This document shows, piece by piece, positions 1,329 to 46,190 of a stretch of DNA of 64,000 nucleotides (positions within the stretch are counted from its first letter, which is position 1; every line of letters begins with the position of its first letter). The notes below the pieces were generated by a model. That model did no database searches and was not told the DNA's origin. It saw only the letters and a list, made by a program, of their open reading frames with translations. The DNA is from Escherichia coli (GTDB lineage Bacteria > Pseudomonadota > Gammaproteobacteria > Enterobacterales > Enterobacteriaceae), in NCBI RefSeq assembly GCF_030013595.1, contig NZ_CP122768.1; one strand, 5' to 3'. The translations under genes and the position numbers were made by a program.

Positions 1329-2282
1329 ATGCGGGCGAAACTTCTGGGAATAGTCCTGACAACCCCTATTGCGATCAGCTCTTTTGCTTCTACCGAGACT
1401 TTATCGTTTACTCCTGACAACATAAATGCGGACATTAGTCTTGGAACTCTGAGCGGAAAAACAAAAGAGCGTGTTTATCTAGCCGAAGAAGGAGGCCGAA
1501 AAGTCAGTCAACTCGACTGGAAATTCAATAACGCTGCAATTATTAAAGGTGCAATTAATTGGGATTTGATGCCCCAGATATCTATCGGGGCTGCTGGCTG
1601 GACAACTCTCGGCAGCCGAGGTGGCAATATGGTCGATCAGGACTGGATGGATTCCAGTAACCCCGGAACCTGGACGGATGAAAGTAGACACCCTGATACA
1701 CAACTCAATTATGCCAACGAATTTGATCTGAATATCAAAGGCTGGCTCCTCAACGAACCCAATTACCGCCTGGGACTCATGGCCGGATATCAGGAAAGCC
1801 GTTATAGCTTTACAGCCAGAGGTGGTTCCTATATCTACAGTTCTGAGGAGGGATTCAGAGATGATATCGGCTCCTTCCCGAATGGAGAAAGAGCAATCGG
1901 CTACAAACAACGTTTTAAAATGCCCTACATTGGCTTGACTGGAAGTTATCGTTATGAAGATTTTGAGCTAGGTGGCACATTTAAATACAGCGGCTGGGTG
2001 GAAGCATCTGATAACGATGAGCACTATGACCCAGGAAAAAGAATCACTTATCGCAGTAAAGTCAAAGACCAAAATTACTATTCTGTTGCAGTCAATGCAG
2101 GTTATTACGTAACACCTAACGCAAAAGTTTATGTTGAAGGCGCATGGAATCGGGTTACGAATAAAAAAGGTAATACTTCACTTTATGATCACAATGATAA
2201 CACTTCAGACTACAGCAAAAATGGTGCAGGCATAGAAAACTATAACTTCATCACTACTGCTGGTCTTAAGTACACCTTTTAA
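1329..2282 (+). CDS. ompT: Outer membrane protease OmpT (omptin)
   Basis: 317-aa ORF with signal peptide and beta-barrel omptin sequence recognised from memory; prophage cargo as in DLP12. Confidence 0.9.
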   Translation: MRAKLLGIVLTTPIAISSFASTETLSFTPDNINADISLGTLSGKTKERVYLAEEGGRKVSQLDWKFNNAAIIKGAINWDLMPQISIGAAGWTTLGSRGGNMVDQDWMDSSNPGTWTDESRHPDTQLNYANEFDLNIKGWLLNEPNYRLGLMAGYQESRYSFTARGGSYIYSSEEGFRDDIGSFPNGERAIGYKQRFKMPYIGLTGSYRYEDFELGGTFKYSGWVEASDNDEHYDPGKRITYRSKVKDQNYYSVAVNAGYYVTPNAKVYVEGAWNRVTNKKGNTSLYDHNDNTSDYSKNGAGIENYNFITTAGLKYTF

Positions 2283-2468: not shown

Positions 2469-3953
2469 ATGCGAAAAATAATTACTCATTTCAAAGTTGT
2501 TTTAACGTTACTTCTACCAGTAACCGTATCTGCCCAGCAGATACAGTGGCAATCCTGTATGGCCAGTCAATTCAACCACTGGTTTGGTGAGGAAAAACCG
2601 TCTCCTGACTTACTATGTGGTTATTTGTCTGTTCCATTAAAATATACAGACACAGGCGGAGATGCTTCTTATGAAAAAAAATCACAAGTCAAACTAGCGT
2701 TGACAAAATTGCCGGCAAAAAGCAAGCATAAAGGAAGTATCCTGATAATAAGTGGTGGTCCCGGGTTACCAGGCATAAATCCTTATATTAACTTTGACTG
2801 GCCAGTCACAAATCTTCGTGAGTCATGGGATATTATTGGATTTGATCCTCGAGGCGTCGGACAGTCCACTCCGACAATAAACTGCCGGCAATCAGATACA
2901 GAGACTCAGGAAAACATAACCGAAAAGCAACAAGTATTAAATAAAATTAATGCCTGTATCCATAATACCGGAGCCGAAGTCATTCGCCATATCGGCTCTA
3001 ACGAGGCTGTATACGATATTGATCGTATTAGGCAAGCCTTGGGGGATAAACAACTGACAGCCGTGGCGTATTCGTATGGAACTCAAATTGCAGCCTTATA
3101 TGCAGAACGTTTTCCCTACAACGTAAGATCTATCGTTCTTGATGGAGTCGTCGATATCGATGACCTGGAGGACAACTTCACATGGCAACTCAAACAGGCA
3201 CAGAGTTATCAGGAAACGTTTGATCGCTTTGCATCCTGGTGTGCGCGTACAAAAAGTTGCCCGCTTTCTTCAGACAGAGATAAGGCAATAACTCACTTCC
3301 ATGAGCTATTATCAAAATTACATCACAAACCTTTATTAGACAGTAAGGGAGAAAATATATCTTCAGGTGAACTCATATCATTAACAACAGACCTTCTGCT
3401 ATGGCGTTCATCATGGCCAACCCTTGCAACTGCCATACGCCAGTTCTCTCAGGGGATTGTCAGTAATGAAATTGAAACTGCGCTCAGTGCTCCGATAGCC
3501 TCAGAAGAGTCAAGCGATGCTTCGGGGGTAATCCTCTGTGTAGATCAGGGGGATGAGCAATTAACACCAGAAGAGCGAAAATCCCGAAAAGACGCTCTTG
3601 CGAATGCCTTCCCGGCTATTAACTTTGACAATGGACGTTCCGATTCACCTGATTTTTGTGAATTATGGCCAATACATAGCGACCTGAACAAAACTCGCCT
3701 GAAAAATACTGTTCTGCCCTCTGGTTTACTGTTTGTAGCACACAAATACGACCCAACAACGCCCTGGATTAATGCCCGTAAGATGGCAGAGAAATTTTCC
3801 AGCCCGTTACTAACAATAAATGGTGATGGGCATACATTAGCTCTCACCGGAGTTAATTTATGTGTAGATAAAGCAGTTGTACATCACCTGATCACTCCAC
3901 AAAAAATAGAAAATATATACTGCCCAGGAAATTCTGAAGCAGAAATACAATAA
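2469..3953 (+). CDS. Secreted alpha/beta-hydrolase fold peptidase (S33 / TAP-like)
   Basis: 494-aa ORF; N-terminal signal peptide; GGPG oxyanion-hole motif (ISGGPGLPG); Ser nucleophile motif AYSYG; occupies the position where K-12 DLP12 has appY. Confidence 0.7.
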   Translation: MRKIITHFKVVLTLLLPVTVSAQQIQWQSCMASQFNHWFGEEKPSPDLLCGYLSVPLKYTDTGGDASYEKKSQVKLALTKLPAKSKHKGSILIISGGPGLPGINPYINFDWPVTNLRESWDIIGFDPRGVGQSTPTINCRQSDTETQENITEKQQVLNKINACIHNTGAEVIRHIGSNEAVYDIDRIRQALGDKQLTAVAYSYGTQIAALYAERFPYNVRSIVLDGVVDIDDLEDNFTWQLKQAQSYQETFDRFASWCARTKSCPLSSDRDKAITHFHELLSKLHHKPLLDSKGENISSGELISLTTDLLLWRSSWPTLATAIRQFSQGIVSNEIETALSAPIASEESSDASGVILCVDQGDEQLTPEERKSRKDALANAFPAINFDNGRSDSPDFCELWPIHSDLNKTRLKNTVLPSGLLFVAHKYDPTTPWINARKMAEKFSSPLLTINGDGHTLALTGVNLCVDKAVVHHLITPQKIENIYCPGNSEAEIQ

Positions 3954-3973
3954 TTTCAAAATATTCCGCTATT

Positions 3974-4015
3974 TGCTCCCAATGCAAAACATATATTGCA
4001 TTGGGAGCATATTCA
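3974..4015 (+). terminator. Intrinsic terminator (perfect 14-bp stem)
   Basis: tgctcccaatgcaa / ttgcattgggagca inverted repeat with 8-nt loop, followed by a T-rich tract. Confidence 0.6.
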
Positions 4016-4136
4016 TATTTTTGTTATTCTTGTATGAAATCGTCTCATGTACACGGTCCTTTTTTCGCCGAAAACTGATATTACTTTAATCAAAAGTTGA
4101 CGTGCCAGATTCGAAGTAAATTTATAAAATATCAAA

Positions 4137-4442
4137 TCAATATACATTTTGCACCTTCGAGATAGTAATGGCTGTTACTGTAACATGGGTTACAAACAGC
4201 TTCATACCCAGAGCTACTGATGTATCAACACGATTCAACAATACCCGATATTTATTCCATGCCTCCAGCAACGATCTTTCTTCCTCCGTTGCGATTTCCA
4301 GATCTACAGCATCCTGCAGTGGCGCAATATACTCACTGAATTCCTGGATGTAGAACTGTGTGGTGACGGTCTTCCAGCCATTCGGCTCCTGCTGTATCGA
4401 AGCATACCAGGCTATTTCAATATCGCTATGCTGCGGCAGCAT
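4137..4442 (-). pseudogene. Tail fiber assembly gene remnant (tfaX-like)
   Basis: 101-aa ORF whose N-terminal ~40 aa aligns with the C-terminal region of the Tfa at 5222-5806 (APLQDAxDLEIATE..[18 protein letters not shown]) and then diverges. Confidence 0.6.
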
Positions 4443-4498
4443 TTAACCCCTTGTAATTCATCGCCATAATTGATTTAATTCACAAATAAAACTATAAC

Positions 4499-5167
4499 AT
4501 GGTGAAATTAATGAAAAAAAACACAGATGATGGGGCTAAAATTTACACACCACTTACCCTAAAGCTTTATGACTGGTGGGTTTTGGGAGTATCAAATCGG
4601 CTTGCATGGGGATGTCCTACAAAGGAACACCTTCTTCCACACTTTCTGGAACATTTAGGTAACAACCATCTGGATATTGGTGTTGGAACTGGGTTTTACC
4701 TTACTCACGTACCTGAGAGTAGTCTGATATCTTTAATGGATTTGAACGAAGCTAGCCTGAACGCGGCATCTACAAGGGCTGGGGAATCAAAAATTAAACA
4801 TAAAATTAGCCATGATGTTTTTGAACCTTATCCCGCGGCGTTACATGGTCAATTTGATTCCATTTCCATGTTTTACCTTCTTCACTGCCTGCCTGGAAAT
4901 ATATCTACAAAAAGCTGTGTAATACGCAATGCGGCGCAGGCCTTAACTGACGATGGAACTCTATACGGAGCCACAATTCTTGGCGATGGAGTTGTGCACA
5001 ATAGCTTCGGTCAAAAACTGATGCGCATTTACAATCAGAAAGGCATCTTTTCAAACACAAAAGATTCCGAAGAAGGCTTAACACATATACTCTCAGAGCA
5101 TTTCGAGAATGTTAAAACCAAGGTTCAAGGTACTGTAGTAATGTTTTCCGCTTCAGGGAAAAAATAG
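4499..5167 (+). CDS. Class I SAM-dependent methyltransferase (YbcY-like)
   Basis: 222-aa ORF with the glycine-rich SAM-binding motif DIGVGTG; same position as ybcY between tfa copies in DLP12. Confidence 0.7.
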   Translation: MVKLMKKNTDDGAKIYTPLTLKLYDWWVLGVSNRLAWGCPTKEHLLPHFLEHLGNNHLDIGVGTGFYLTHVPESSLISLMDLNEASLNAASTRAGESKIKHKISHDVFEPYPAALHGQFDSISMFYLLHCLPGNISTKSCVIRNAAQALTDDGTLYGATILGDGVVHNSFGQKLMRIYNQKGIFSNTKDSEEGLTHILSEHFENVKTKVQGTVVMFSASGKK

Positions 5168-5221
5168 CATCCAACCGCAGCACGTTCTTGCTTAAGACGT
5201 GCTGCGGCATAATCCCAATGA

Positions 5222-5806
5222 TTACTCCCTGACAGGGTTCGTAGGCCACTCAATATCAGGTGCAGTTGATGTATCAACACGGTTCAGCAACACCCGATAC
5301 TTTTTCCAGGCTTCCAGCAACGAGGTTTCTCCCTCCGTTGCGATTTCCAGATCTGCAGCATCCTGAAGTGGCGCAATATGCTCACTGGCTACCTGCATCA
5401 GGCTGTTTTTTGTTTCTTCCGCCTCCCGGATCCGGAACAGTTTTTCTGCTTCTGCATCTTTCACCCAGGTTGTGCCGTTCCACTTCTGAAACTCCCCTTC
5501 CGGGGATAACCAGGTGACATTTTCCGGTAATGAGCCGAGTTCAGAAATAAATAACGCGTCGCCGGAAGCCACGTCATAGACGGTTTTACCCCGATGGTCT
5601 TCAACGAGATGCCACGATGCCTCATCACTGTTGAAAACAGCCACAAAGCCAGCCGGAATATCTGGCGGTGCAATATCGGTACTGTTTGCTGGCAGACCTG
5701 TATGAGGCGGAATATATGCGTCACCTTCACCAATAAATTCATTAGTTCCGGCCAGCAGATTATAAATTTTTATGGTCCGTGGTTGTTCACTCATTCTGAA
5801 TGCCAT
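5222..5806 (-). CDS. tfa: Tail fiber assembly protein Tfa
   Basis: 194-aa ORF immediately downstream of stf; lambda Tfa-like sequence. Confidence 0.85.
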
Positions 5807-8800
5807 TATGCAAGCCTCACAATATAGTTAAATGCGATGTTTTTGACGGTGTTTTCCGCGTTACCAGCAGCGTTAACGGTGATGGTGTGTCCATGTGAGC
5901 CAATCGCAACCGAGTGCGTATGAGCACCAATACCGACAGTATGTGCGTGTGCACCTGCGCTTGCAGCAGTGCCGGACAGTGAGTGGGTATGTGCGCCAGC
6001 AGATGATGTTGCATAGTTTTGATTATGCACAACAGACAATCTTGTTGATGCACTACCAGCACCGGAGTTAGCACTAGCCGTGTTCACGTTGGCTAGTGAG
6101 TGTGTGTGTGCTCCAGCCGAGTTTGTAGAGCCGCTCACACTGTGTGTATGTGCCCCGGTGTTATTCGTAGATTTAGTGCCGTAATCAAACGACGATGTGG
6201 TTTTCGTACCCAAATCCGTACTTGATGCGCTGGCGCTGTGGGTGTGCGATTTAATGCCGTCCTGTTCCTGAGACAATACGGCACGACCACTGGCGGGCTT
6301 GCCCTTAATCGTCCAGCCACGCATATCAGGGATCACGCCTGACGGATAAGCAACTGCAAGTTTCGGGTATGCAGATTTGTCAAAAGTCTGCCCCTGCATC
6401 AGGGCATAACCAGACGGAACGGTATCTGATGGCCACGGAATTGGTGCGCCAACTGGGTAGCTTTCTGGTGGAAGATTTTTCGAGGTATAAACTTCTGCCC
6501 AGCCTTCCTCAAAACCATAGCCATCTCTTGAGGAACGGTAGAACAGACCTCCATTTCTGTAATGCGCCTTCATCTGCAGGGTCCGGCAACTTCCGACTCC
6601 GGTATAGAAGTTAACCAGAATATAGCTGTCGCCAGAGCGGGTGACATTGTAAGCGCCTGATTCGGCATTCCAGGGAACGCCACCATCCGCATCGGCATAT
6701 GTATCCGTTGCCCTTCTGGCAAAAGCAGCCACATGCGCGGCGGTTAAAGTAATATCTTTTGAACCATCAAACTCAACCCCAGAAACCAGTCTTGGCGTTT
6801 GCAGCTTTGTTGCTGTCAATGCGTTACCGTTCAGACTTGCAGACAGTTTGGTTCCAATAACCAGTTCGCCGGTTGCGTTATCAATAGCAAACGGTCTTAA
6901 TGTATTCCAGCCACCATAAACATCACCTTGATTGGTAAGCAGCAGGTAAGTTTTAGCGCCATCATTACGCCATAATGCCCCATACTCCCCACCTATCATT
7001 CGAATCTGATTACCACCACGCGCTACAATTTCGTCTGTGGCAAAAAGTTTTTTGCACGACAAGTTATCGTTAACGATTAACGAATGGGACTCATAAAAAC
7101 CACGCCCACTCTTAAAATCAAGGATAACGTCCGCCGCGATACATTCAGTCGCTGGAATTGTTGCCCCAAACTTATAGGTCGTATCATTAACAACGAGATC
7201 AGCACCAGGTGCGGATATTGACAGGCCATCTTCGATAAACGCAAAAACAGGGAAAGCAGCGCCATCAACATAGAACACAGAGCGCAAATCATCGCCCTTA
7301 TTACTCATCATTATTGAGTGGATGGCTCGTTCATTGTTTTGATATTGCCAGAACATTCCATAAGCATAACGCCCCCTGTCAGTCCAGCCACCAGGCATAA
7401 CAAATCCGTTAAACTCGCAGTTATTCATCGGATCGCCTGCGGTTCGCGTTGCCGTGGTGATAATGACCCTTGATGCCAGTTCGCTTACTGAGCCAGCAGA
7501 ACGCATAACAACAACAGGGTAATATTTTCCAGATGTTGCACCTGCAGGAGCGTTAACCCGCACATAACGCATACCACGCTTATCAGCAAAGTCTGTTTTA
7601 CTGACCGCGTTAATGTTGTTCAGGAAGCGTCCCTTATCGGGTATATCAGCGCCGTTCTGGTCTTTCTGCAGACGTTTCTCTGCATTGTCATAGGCTGATT
7701 TTACTGACTTTGGCGTTGCCGCCAGCGTTTCAGACGTACTGTTGGTCGCACTGCTGAGCTGTACTATCCCCTTTTTCGTCGTACTTGCATCCTCAAGCGC
7801 CACGGCGGATGCAATATCCTCTGCCCGTTTAGCTGCTGTCTCGGCGCGCGTTGCCGCGGATTCCGCCGTACTTTTGCTCTGTGCTGCCGCTGTCGCACTG
7901 CCAGCAGCCTCTGTCGCCTTCGTGGATGCCGTCGTGGCGCTGCCCTTCGCTGCTGACGCCTGTCTGGTCGCCTCATCTTTTGAAGCAGACGCAGATGATG
8001 CCGATGACGCCGCCGAACTGGCGGACGATGCCGCTGCCGTTTTTGAGGATTCTGCGCTGGTTTCCGACGCTTTCGCGTTCGTTTCGGATGTCTTCGCTGC
8101 GGATGCAGACCTCGCTGCTGCGCTGGCCTGTTCAGCGGCTTCGCCAGCCTTCGTTGTGGCTGTTGAAGCGGACAATGCAGCGCTTTCTGCCGATTTTCCG
8201 GCGGCGGTGGCACTGGCTGAGGCCTGCCCGGCACTTGTTGACGCTGCACTGGCAGACGACGCAGCCGCTGTTTTTGAGCCTGCCGCAGCTGAGGCGCTCT
8301 GTCCCGCTGCCGTTTCAGAAGACCTGGCGTTCGTCTCGGACGTTTTTGCCGCCTTCGCGGAATTTCCTGCCGCCGTTGCCGAGGAAGCTGCACTACTGGC
8401 GCTCGAGGCTGCGCTCGTTTCTGATGATTTTGCAGCCTCTTTTGAGGCCGCCGCATCCCGGGCCGAGGTCGCAGCTTCTGATGCCTTCGTGGTCGCGGTG
8501 GATGCAGATGTGGCTGCTGATTGTTGTGACGCTGAAGCATTCGTTTCTGACGTTTTCGCCGCACCGGCACTGGTGGCCGCCGCGCTTTTTGAGGACTCTG
8601 CAGCGGCAGCACTTTTTGATGCTTCAGTGGCCTTTGTTGATGCCGTTCCTGCGCTGGAAGACGCTGACTGAGCCGACGAAGCGGCCTGTCCGGCTGACGT
8701 GCTGGCTGCGCGTGCTGAGCCTGCAGCATCAGTCGCATGGGTTGCCGCCTCACGGGCAGATGTGCCGGCATCGCCGGCTGACTTCTTCGCGGCTGCCGTG

Positions 8801-9165
8801 TTCTGTGCCACCACGGACGCGTTACGCGCCACCTCTTCCACCATCAGCTCAAAACGGCGCAGTGCCTCCGGACGGGCATCATCCTCCGTCATGGCACCGA
8901 GAAAATCATTCAGCGTACCGGGTCGGGAATCTTCATACACTGTGATAGTCCCGGCATGTGACGGCGGGAATCCTTCCACCAACAGAATAACGCTGTACTG
9001 ACCGTACTCAACGTCCATACTGTAACGCCCGGCTTCATCCGGATTTTCTGAGGCCAGCGTGTTCACCACCACCGTGGTGCTGTTACGTTTTGCTTTCAGC
9101 TGGATTGTGCAGTTCTGTACCGGTTTTCCTGTGCCGTCTTTCAGTACACCTGAAATCTTTACTGC
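5806..9165 (-). CDS. stf: Side tail fiber protein Stf
   Basis: ~1120-aa ORF; lambda Stf-like N-terminus ([12 protein letters not shown]); long Ala/Ser/Thr-rich repeat region; C-terminal GAHTHS histidine repeats. Confidence 0.85.
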
Positions 9166-9178
9166 CATATTCACCCCA

Positions 9179-44708: not shown

Positions 44709-45079
44709 TGGAGCCATACAGCCTCACACTCGATGAGGCCTGTCAGTTTCTTAAGATATCCAGACCAACCGCCACCAACTGGATACGAACAGGCCGCCTA
44801 CAGGCAACACGTAAAGATCCAACCAAGCCAAAATCTCCTTACCTCACAACACGGCAAGCTTGCATTGCGGCGCTTCAGTCTCCGCTGCATACTGTCCAGG
44901 TGAGCGCGGGTGATGGCATAACAGAGGAAAGAAAATGTCACTCTTCCGCAGAAATGAAATATGGTATGCCTCGTATTCGCTCCCGGGCGGGAAACGAATT
45001 AAGGAATCTCTTGGCACAAAGGACAAGCGGCAAGCTCAGGAGTTGCACGACAAGCGAAAAGCAGAACTCTGGCGAGTAG
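44708..45079 (+). CDS. xis: Putative excisionase (Xis)
   Basis: ATG at 44708 overlapping the upstream stop (TAATG); N-terminal HTH-like region ([31 protein letters not shown]); overlaps the int start out of frame; the 3' end is uncertain. Confidence 0.5.
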
Positions 45080-46098
45080 AAAAGCTAGGGGATTTACCTG
45101 ATGTCACTTTTGAAGAGGCCTGCCTAAGATGGCTTGAGGAAAAAGCTGATAAAAAATCTCTCGATTCAGATAAAAGCCGGATTGAGTTCTGGCTTGAACA
45201 TTTTGAGGGTATAAGGCTTAAAGATATCTCGGAGGCAAAGATTTACTCTGCTGTAAGCAGAATGCATAACAGAAAGACGAAAGAAATATGGAAACAGAAA
45301 GTTCAGGCCGCCATCAGGAAAGGTAAAGAACCGCCTGTTTATGAACCAAAGCCAGTATCAACTCAGACAAAGGCAAAGCATCTTGCCATGATAAAGGCCA
45401 TTCTCCGTGCTGCAGAACGCGACTGGAAGTGGCTGGAAAAAGCGCCTGTCATCAAGATACCAGCGGTCAGAAACAAGCGAGTCAGATGGCTGGAAAAGGA
45501 GGAAGCAAAACGCCTTATTGATGAGTGCCCCGAACCACTGAAATCTGTCGTCAAGTTTGCGCTGGCAACTGGTCTGAGAAAGTCGAACATCATAAATCTG
45601 GAATGGCAACAAATCGACATGCAGCGACGAGTTGCCTGGGTGAATCCAGAAGAGAGCAAATCAAACCGCGCCATTGGTGTGGCGCTGAACGATACCGCCT
45701 GTAAAGTGTTGCGTGATCAAATAGGCAAGCATCACAAATGGGTGTTTGTACATACCAAGGCGGCTAAGCGAGCAGATGGAACATCAACGCCTGCGGTCAG
45801 GAAGATGCGCATCGACAGCAAGACATCATGGCTATCAGCTTGTCGTCGTGCAGGAATTGAAGATTTCCGTTTCCATGACCTCAGACACACCTGGGCAAGC
45901 TGGCTGATCCAGTCAGGCGTCCCATTATCTGTGCTTCAGGAAATGGGCGGATGGGAGTCCATAGAAATGGTTCGTAGGTATGCTCACCTTGCGCCTAATC
46001 ATTTGACAGAGCATGCAAGGAAAATAGACGACATTTTTGGTGATAATGTCCCAAATATGTCCCACTGTGGAATTATGGAGGATATAAAGAAGGCGTAA
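44935..46098 (+). CDS. int: Tyrosine integrase (DLP12 IntD type)
   Basis: 387 aa; C-terminal catalytic region with HDLRHT..Y; ends 16 bp from argU. Confidence 0.9.
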
Positions 46099-46113: not shown

Positions 46114-46190
46114 TGGCGCGCCCTGCAGGATTCGAACCTGCGGCCCACGACTTAGAAGGTCGTTGCTCTATCCAACTGAGCTAAGGGCGC
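46114..46190 (-). tRNA. argU: tRNA-Arg (UCU) argU
   Basis: Reverse complement gcgcccttagctcagttggatagagcaacgaccttctaagtcgtgggccgcaggttcgaatcctgcagggcgcgcca is a cloverleaf with anticodon TCT and terminal CCA. Confidence 0.9.

Follow-up and report, generated by a model that had tools for sequence, protein, structure and literature searches.

The tail fiber locus of a DLP12-type prophage

We analyzed a 64,000-nucleotide (nt) stretch of Escherichia coli DNA (contig NZ_CP122768.1 of assembly GCF_030013595.1), called the window here, with a focus on positions 4137–5806. This segment contains a complete tail fiber assembly gene (tfa), an intact ybcY-type gene of a class I S-adenosylmethionine-dependent methyltransferase, and a short chimeric open reading frame (ORF), called the stub, which includes part of a second tfa. 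The complete tfa and the stub are in direct orientation on the minus strand and the methyltransferase gene is located between them on the plus strand, as recorded in an initial annotation of this DNA. The segment is collinear with the tfaX-ybcY-tfaD genes of E. coli K-12 (NC_000913), with a blastn identity of 96.96% over the 1448 nt of window positions 4213–5660. It is very probable, and this grading applies to our explanation of the locus as a whole, that the segment is the distal end of the side-tail-fiber module of a full-length DLP12-type lambdoid prophage at argU, and the intact counterpart of K-12 tfaD-ybcY-tfaX.

One end of the prophage region is marked by the genes envY (55–816) and ompT (1329–2282). 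Lambda-like tail genes are located between there and the other end, which is delimited by a tRNA-Arg(tct) gene at 46114–46190. The tRNA gene adjoins a 387-residue ORF (44935–46098), which is a putative integrase gene as expected from its position; the assignment is by position only. The prophage thus has the properties that define DLP12, which are a lambdoid genome integrated at argU and a distal end formed by ompT-envY.

Complete tfa and the direct repeat

The complete tfa (5222–5806, minus strand) encodes a protein of 194 residues, and is coupled directly downstream of the side tail fiber gene stf, as is characteristic of its family. The ATG of tfa overlaps the stop codon of stf in the sequence TAATG. 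The Tfa protein matches the Pfam family PF02413 (Caudo_TAP) over profile positions 1–130 of 131 (E = 9.6e-44, 149.1 bits, cut-off 22.1) and the tail fiber assembly family phrog_105 (E = 6.6e-99). The stf gene (5806–9174, minus strand) is the last structural gene of the late operon. Its product of 1122 residues contains the Pfam domains phage_tail_N, Gp34_trimer, Collar, and Phage_fiber, and the gene is annotated as stfR in an identical RefSeq locus. As judged from their sequences, stf and tfa (5222–9174, minus strand) probably encode a working fiber and its chaperone, with the chaperone activity being predicted.

The distal part of tfa (5267–5398, minus strand) forms the right copy of a gap-free 132-nt direct repeat and encodes the conserved C-terminal helical domain of Tfa. 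The left copy is located within the stub at 4218–4349, and the two copies are 87% identical (blastn E = 4.4e-41). The proteins encoded by the ORFs at 4137–4442 and 5222–5806 share 38 of 51 residues (BLASTP E = 1e-22), and both match Caudo_TAP. The initial annotation had proposed that the two share the C-terminal sequence of Tfa, and the similarity is significant at both the nucleotide and protein levels. The edges of the repeat are sharp, since the 81–93 nt flanking the copies on each side are 31–35% identical. The longest perfectly identical run within the repeat is 23 nt. The 17 differences between the copies, which constitute a small sample, are distributed 3/5/9 over the three codon positions, and affect seven codons synonymously and eight non-synonymously.

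In the 132-nt segment, the functional tfa alleles of the window, phage lambda, K-12 (tfaD), and phages Turner and PhiR68_2 are 93–98% identical to one another; the identity between the window and lambda alleles is 96%. The stubs are 85–89% identical to every one of these alleles and no closer to the neighboring tfa (87%). Therefore, the stub is not a duplicate of the tfa next to it. The C-terminal domain of Tfa is described as a conserved trimerization and assembly domain common to otherwise unrelated chaperones (PMC9608196, summarizing North et al. 2019), which is why only this segment is recognizable and shared.

Chimeric structure of the stub

The stub ORF (4137–4442, minus strand) is 101 codons long and, according to profile and homolog matches, is a chimera composed of three parts: the start of a phrog_3893 gene, a segment encoding the Tfa C-terminal domain, and an unrelated tail. 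The initial annotation had regarded the whole ORF as a tfa remnant. The central part, at approximately 4218–4337, is indeed derived from tfa, whereas the first 35 codons (4338–4442) and the last 24 (4140–4217) are not. The ORF matches Caudo_TAP only at profile positions 75–121 of 131 (residues 31–77, E = 8.9e-18). It lacks the N-terminal fiber-binding domain of the two-domain Tfa proteins, and its C-terminal domain is partial. There is no adjacent upstream tail fiber gene, and the upstream neighbor of the stub is the divergent methyltransferase gene.

The 5′ part of the stub (4338–4442) comes from a small, unrelated phage gene, of which it retains the start codon and about 35 codons. This gene belongs to phrog_3893, a family with unassigned function. 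The match (E = 3.6e-7) covers residues 3–37 and profile positions 2–36 of 79, and thus does not extend over the approximately 79 residues of a full-length member. This part is 51% identical to the start of a 79-residue ORF of Klebsiella phage Kp4882-3. The Kp4882-3 ORF and gp28 of phage HK225 are full-length members of the family, with E-values of 1e-37 and 2e-42, respectively. Phage Ayreon carries a copy of the 5′ stub DNA with 91% identity, which continues beyond the fusion point into a degenerate yet recognizable remainder of the small gene.

The tfa-derived part (4218–4337, minus strand), which belongs to the left repeat copy, spans some 40 codons from the conserved C-terminal domain. Its joint with the small gene is blurred, up to position 4349, by microhomology at 8 of 12 positions (ATCCAGGAATTC versus ATGCAGGTAGCC). 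The 3′ part of the ORF (4137–4217, minus strand; VALGMKLF... to the stop) is of non-tfa origin and delimits the second breakpoint. A natural 3′ end of tfa, such as the one encoding ...APDIEWLIQP before the stop, is kept in K-12 and in potB-type alleles, and is replaced in the window. Homology in the window lineage stops at 4217/4218, at the junction with an α/β-hydrolase cassette that has taken the place of appY.

In all probability, the stub ORF is a dead, decaying chimeric pseudogene. The alleles of K-12 and PhiR68_2 are interrupted by a TGA at codon 62, and the 88-residue form of the stub that defines the family phrog_2341 is kept only in the potB-type allele. At least eight further stub alleles, disrupted by various frameshifts or by an internal deletion, are recorded in the protein database, and every lesion is located in the Tfa-derived part. 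The window and K-12 stubs are identical at 4264–4360 and then differ at 14 of 46 positions over 4218–4263. From 4360 through 4442 and the methyltransferase gene, the two sequences are nearly identical, with one or two differences per 50 nt. The divergence at 4218–4263 beside the identity at 4264–4360 indicates that a crossover or conversion tract ends inside the stub.

In an identical genome, the NCBI Prokaryotic Genome Annotation Pipeline (PGAP) treated the stub as a pseudogene, and the label given to 4137–4349 is "tail fiber assembly protein, incomplete, missing N-terminus". For one genome, PGAP placed a frameshifted "DinI family protein" on the plus strand at 4344–4423 (5127–5206 of the equivalent locus L017). 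The translation of this segment has no match to Pfam DinI or to NCBIfam. The minus-strand reading of 4344–4423 as phrog_3893 has profile and homolog support, and the DinI reading was not adopted.

The phrog_3893 gene of HK225 is divergent from a genuine dinI gene. In Kp4882-3 (locus L008, 3504–4071; proteins P0150, P0151, and P0153), the full-length phrog_3893 gene extends into the beginning of a 130-residue ORF, which resembles UmuD by eye and has no Pfam match. Short Citrobacter fragments of the family are named "DNA polymerase V, partial" by NCBI. The phrog_3893 family may be linked to umuD-like operons.

Methyltransferase gene and its signals

The methyltransferase gene (4499–5167, plus strand) is listed as encoding 222 residues. 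Its true start is probably the ATG at 4511, giving 218 residues, since promoter-like hexamers at 4470–4498 abut the first ATG. The phrog_2132 profile aligns to the protein from residue 5, and most homologs are 218 residues long; the 90%-identity cluster has 6589 members. The hexamers, TTGATT and TATAAC with a 17-nt spacer, were read from the sequence as a sigma-70 promoter-like element (4470–4498, plus strand) in the spacer between the methyltransferase gene and the stub. A K-12 map from genomic systematic evolution of ligands by exponential enrichment assigns these hexamers to a constitutive RpoD promoter of ybcY, and shows the ybcY-tfaX spacer as bound by H-NS and containing divergent constitutive promoters (PMC3946193).

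The protein exceeds the Pfam gathering scores of Methyltransf_12 (37.6 bits versus 30), Methyltransf_23, Methyltransf_25, and Methyltransf_11. The glycine-rich SAM motif D-x-G-x-G-T-G (DIGVGTG) is invariant in 32 homologs. The AlphaFold2 model, with a predicted local distance difference test score of 90.8, has a Rossmann-like α/β fold built of alternating strand and helix elements, and Foldseek assigned it a probability of 1.0 of similarity to many class I methyltransferases. The nearest folds are those of phosphatidylethanolamine N-methyltransferase, juvenile-hormone acid methyltransferase (JHAMT), phosphoethanolamine methyltransferase, natural-product C-, N-, and O-methyltransferases, and UbiG, with sequence identities of 14–21%. 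A sequence search of the PDB yielded weak matches only (E of about 1e-3), and a search of NCBIfam returned none above the cut-off. We rejected a role as a DNA methyltransferase or in anti-restriction, since the folds are of the small-molecule and lipid type, no DNA methyltransferase is among the listed Foldseek matches, and PADLOC gave only a marginal match to mad2 (E = 0.003, 14 bits).

Homologs of the methyltransferase with 56–65% identity are single chromosomal genes of Salmonella and Enterobacter in non-phage contexts, next to transporters and housekeeping genes. The fraction of guanine and cytosine (GC) in the gene is 0.41, compared to 0.48–0.51 in tfa. The gene is absent from lambda, and was deleted from Ayreon, which lacks the equivalent of window positions 4473–5131. 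Presence or absence between related phages and a composition unlike that of the neighbors are marks of a moron. Morons, a concept reportedly put forward by Juhala and colleagues in 2000, are said to be autonomous cargo genes of lambdoid phages with a promoter and terminator of their own. The methyltransferase is best described, from its sequence and modeled fold, as a putative moron of host origin, whose product would act on small molecules or lipids. Its status as cargo, suggested in the initial annotation, agrees with the lone chromosomal homologs, the AT-richer composition than that of the tail genes, and the absence from lambda and Ayreon.

A strong hairpin with an 11 + 3 base-pair stem (5175–5207, both strands) is located between the convergent tfa and methyltransferase genes. 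Its minimum free energy is −23.9 kcal/mol on the plus strand and −28.5 kcal/mol on the minus strand, with z-scores of −5.6 and −4.3, respectively. The hairpin probably acts as a two-way transcription stop and constitutes the right edge of the methyltransferase unit, as the edge of the segment shared among relatives coincides with it.

A 45-residue ORF (5112–5249, minus strand) spans the hairpin and is annotated in RefSeq as "hypothetical protein" (WP_001309429.1), and as "nucleocapsid protein" in some genomes. This annotation is almost certainly an artifact. The 3′ end of the methyltransferase gene also contains a hix/gix-like core, AAACCAAGGTTC (5115–5126, plus strand), 5 nt from the right endpoint of the Ayreon deletion (5131/5132).

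Exchange of modules around the methyltransferase unit

The full arrangement (1951 nt, at least 80% coverage) was found in 1126 of 5426 complete E. coli genomes. The unit of methyltransferase gene and stub (4213–5207) is about three times as common, occurring in 3419 (63%) of the same genomes. The full arrangement is also present in the sequenced lambdoid phages PhiR26_1, 2G7b, PhiR29, and PhiR30. PhiR26_1, a viable phage with K-12 MG1655 as its listed host, has the same layout as the window. Other strains have the unit in prophages at further sites, which are a tRNA-Arg gene adjacent to yfdC and intS, and a position next to potB.

The methyltransferase gene and the stub are linked as a unit, while the fiber modules to the right and the cargo to the left vary. 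In Turner and PhiR68_2, a 1757-nt cassette with a Pin-type invertase occupies the space between positions 5207 and 5244, and homology to the window stops at 5207. In phage ev243 and E. coli MS20645, the methyltransferase gene is followed on the right by a second tfa 3′ stub of about 120 nt and an unrelated fiber module. The stf of Ayreon is unrelated, and behind it stands a tfa stub of 146 nt. On the left, the stub of the unit adjoins appY, the hydrolase gene, or the end of the prophage, depending on the relative.

The stubs of these other phages are located at the same fiber-module boundary, which indicates that tfa 3′ stubs arise repeatedly exactly there. This recurrence is, at the level of sequence comparison, the strongest support for reading the stub as a scar of module exchange. 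The initial annotation had likewise interpreted the locus as a recombination scar from the exchange of tail fiber modules, and this interpretation is borne out by the abrupt junctions, the chimeric reading frame, the broken alleles, and the parallel stubs and swapped modules in the stf-tfa regions of ev243, Ayreon, Turner, and PhiR68_2. Capture of the methyltransferase gene by the two tfa sequences, as proposed there, was not supported. The gene is linked to the stub (3419 of 5426 genomes) and not to the complete tfa (1126 of 5426), and the unit occurs beside unrelated fibers, as in ev243, or a pin cassette.

Proposed origin of the stub

We hypothesize that the stub is a by-product of the exchange of tail fiber modules among lambdoid phages. 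The upstream crossover of such an exchange would occur in conserved tail genes, and the downstream joint would be illegitimate or fall within the conserved 3′ segment of tfa. The remainder of the resident tfa past the joint would be neutral and could persist as a stub. In the founding event, a fiber module together with its downstream neighbors (the hairpin, the methyltransferase gene, the divergent promoter region, and the small gene) may have become fused to an internal position of a resident tfa. This joint would have been formed by microhomology or illegitimately, and the fused tfa would have been an older allele, different from the present neighbor. The methyltransferase gene would thus have arrived as the downstream neighbor of one fiber module, and stayed linked to the stub thereafter. 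In the lineage of the window, the stub was probably cut again at 4217/4218, as the α/β-hydrolase cassette displaced appY. The model builds on the observed junctions, chimera, decay, linkage of the methyltransferase gene to the stub, and interchangeability of the flanking modules.

Several points weigh against this explanation. Extant sequences are compatible with either side having been the incoming DNA in the founding event. For the small-gene part, the protein search yielded no closely related intact parent in E. coli, but only chimeras, truncated versions, and an incomplete protein from Citrobacter. The identity of this Citrobacter protein is 73%, compared to approximately 51% for the nearest intact relatives. 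In the window, the chimeric ORF is uninterrupted over its 101 codons and adjoins the reported promoter, so that a small protein may be expressed. The hairpin at 5175–5207 lacks a canonical T-run.

Alternative explanations

The open frame could indicate that the chimeric ORF encodes a functional small protein, for example a free Tfa oligomerization domain modulating fiber assembly or interfering with it, or that the DNA is kept for the promoter region of the methyltransferase gene. In favor of this reading, the window, ev243, Turner, and PhiR26_1 all have an uninterrupted frame, and the ORF constitutes a PHROG family of its own (phrog_2341). Divergent constitutive promoters were reported in the K-12 spacer (PMC3946193), and the Tfa C-terminal domain is described as functioning in trimerization and assembly (PMC9608196). 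However, K-12-type alleles contain the in-frame TGA, the C-terminus is replaced in the window allele, and the many frameshifts are all in the Tfa-derived part. Furthermore, the high identity among stub copies matches that of the neighboring gene, which points to recent spread rather than constraint. We therefore regard a functional product or retained DNA as distinctly unlikely. We attach an equally low probability to a role of the stub as a portable homology patch for swapping fiber modules and distal cargo (appY, the hydrolase gene, or the att end), or to open alleles encoding a free Tfa oligomerization domain that interferes with the fibers of co-resident or superinfecting phages.

It is very unlikely that the locus is the remnant of an invertible alternative-fiber segment, with the stub as a former alternative tfa. 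Similarly to the segments G of Mu (gin), C of P1 (cin), and P of e14 (pin), the window contains a second tfa-like sequence downstream of a working stf-tfa. Pin-type cassettes are located between tfa and the methyltransferase gene in the related phages Turner and PhiR68_2, the phrog_3893 gene of HK225 is immediately upstream of a DNA invertase gene, and the window contains the hix-like core AAACCAAGGTTC at 5115–5126. Nevertheless, the two tfa sequences are direct and not inverted, and there is no invertase gene and no fragment of an alternative stf between 3950 and 9174. A search of the window with the hix/gix core AAACCNNGGTTT gave three matches with one mismatch, which is chance level (2.2 expected), and thus no significant crossover site. 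We rejected the origin from an invertible segment on these grounds.

A local tandem duplication of tfa, with decay of one copy into the stub and insertion of the methyltransferase gene between the two, would explain the direct orientation and the 87% identity over 132 nt. It is a most improbable origin. The stub is as distant from its neighbor (87%) as from the lambda, Turner, and K-12 alleles (85–89%), the flanks of the repeat are unrelated, and the 5′ part of the stub is from a different gene family. The unit of stub and methyltransferase gene also occurs beside unrelated fiber modules, and in three times as many genomes. That the 132-nt direct repeat flanking the methyltransferase gene forms a recombination cassette, through which the gene is frequently lost and gained, has next to no probability, since identical runs reach only 23 nt, a deletion would leave the window allele of tfa with an aberrant C-terminus, and the predicted deletion product (3950–4349 joined to 5399–5800, at least 80% coverage) occurs in none of the 5426 complete E. 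coli genomes.

Comparison with known systems

The scar of module exchange that we favor has its closest counterpart in the cryptic K-12 prophage DLP12. Its tfaD-ybcY-tfaX genes (b0561–b0563, beside appY-ompT-envY) have the same order, orientations, and chromosomal site, between argU and ompT-envY. The initial annotation labeled the methyltransferase ybcY-like but did not name the known locus of DLP12. The prophage in the window is full-length, with a complete tfa preceded by stf, whereas tfaD of K-12 follows remnants of the terminase genes nohD and aaaD, with no stf before it. The methyltransferase gene is intact in the window, while ybcY is a pseudogene in K-12. The TGA of K-12 is absent from the stub of the window, which is nevertheless without its natural 3′ end, and the α/β-hydrolase gene is located in place of appY.

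In phage lambda, the stf-tfa genes and b region (ea47 and others) resemble the window in the overlap of stf and tfa, and in a convergent non-essential gene downstream of tfa. Unlike the window, lambda lacks ybcY and a downstream tfa stub. The methyltransferase gene shares with lambdoid morons its position on the opposite strand, a promoter-like site, a flanking hairpin, lower GC content, polymorphic presence, and chromosomal homologs. It differs in being known here from its sequence and in the reported H-NS binding of the K-12 region (PMC3946193). The complete tfa has the layout of modular Tfa chaperones such as TfaMu (PDB 5YVQ; PMC9608196), with a variable N-terminal and a conserved C-terminal part, the latter corresponding to the repeat. 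In contrast, the stub has only part of the C-terminal domain (profile 75–121 of 131) and no fiber-binding domain.

Genes flanking the locus

The distal cargo of the prophage includes ompT (1329–2282, plus strand) and a gene of a TAP-like α/β hydrolase of 494 residues (2469–3953, plus strand), which sits where K-12 has appY. The hydrolase is predicted to be secreted, and its N-terminus is hydrophobic and signal-like by eye. The gene, located between the stub and ompT, accompanies ompT in the free phages ev243, Turner, and PhiR26_1. The protein matches the PADLOC candidate model PDLC01094 "TAP-like protein" (E = 3e-55) and phrog_20134. Directly past the gene, a hairpin (3974–4009, plus strand) with a 14-base-pair stem followed by a T-rich tract (z-score −6.6) forms a canonical intrinsic terminator, which marks the end of the hydrolase cassette.

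The ompT gene (1329–2282 of the window, plus strand; 1230–2183 of locus L003) is carried inside sequenced lambdoid phage genomes, beside the integrase end. In strain QEC11-421, it is part of a prophage that adjoins a tRNA-Arg gene beside yfdC and intS. Therefore, the outer-membrane protease OmpT is phage cargo that moves between integration sites.

On the other side of the locus, stf contains a long repetitive stretch rich in alanine, serine, and threonine (7650–8900, minus strand; ...AAKTSETNA...), with a GC fraction above 0.60. This stretch gives rise to several spurious 300-residue ORFs in other frames and on the opposite strand.

Significance

The arrangement described here is already known, is common in E. 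coli and viable lambdoid phages, and is not unusual. Our analysis makes only small additions, which are the chimeric stub ORF, the crossover inside the stub, and the likely corrected start of the methyltransferase gene. Beyond annotation, the consequences are slight. Chimeric pseudogene is the proper designation for the 101-residue "tail fiber assembly protein" ORF, and the direct repeat should not be taken for a mobile cassette. The locus is a clear example of the exchange of side-tail-fiber modules among lambdoid phages, in which 3′ stubs of the chaperone gene gather at the module boundary together with linked cargo. The ybcY-type methyltransferase, carried by the majority of E. coli genomes and by viable phages, is the sole part that may repay experiment.

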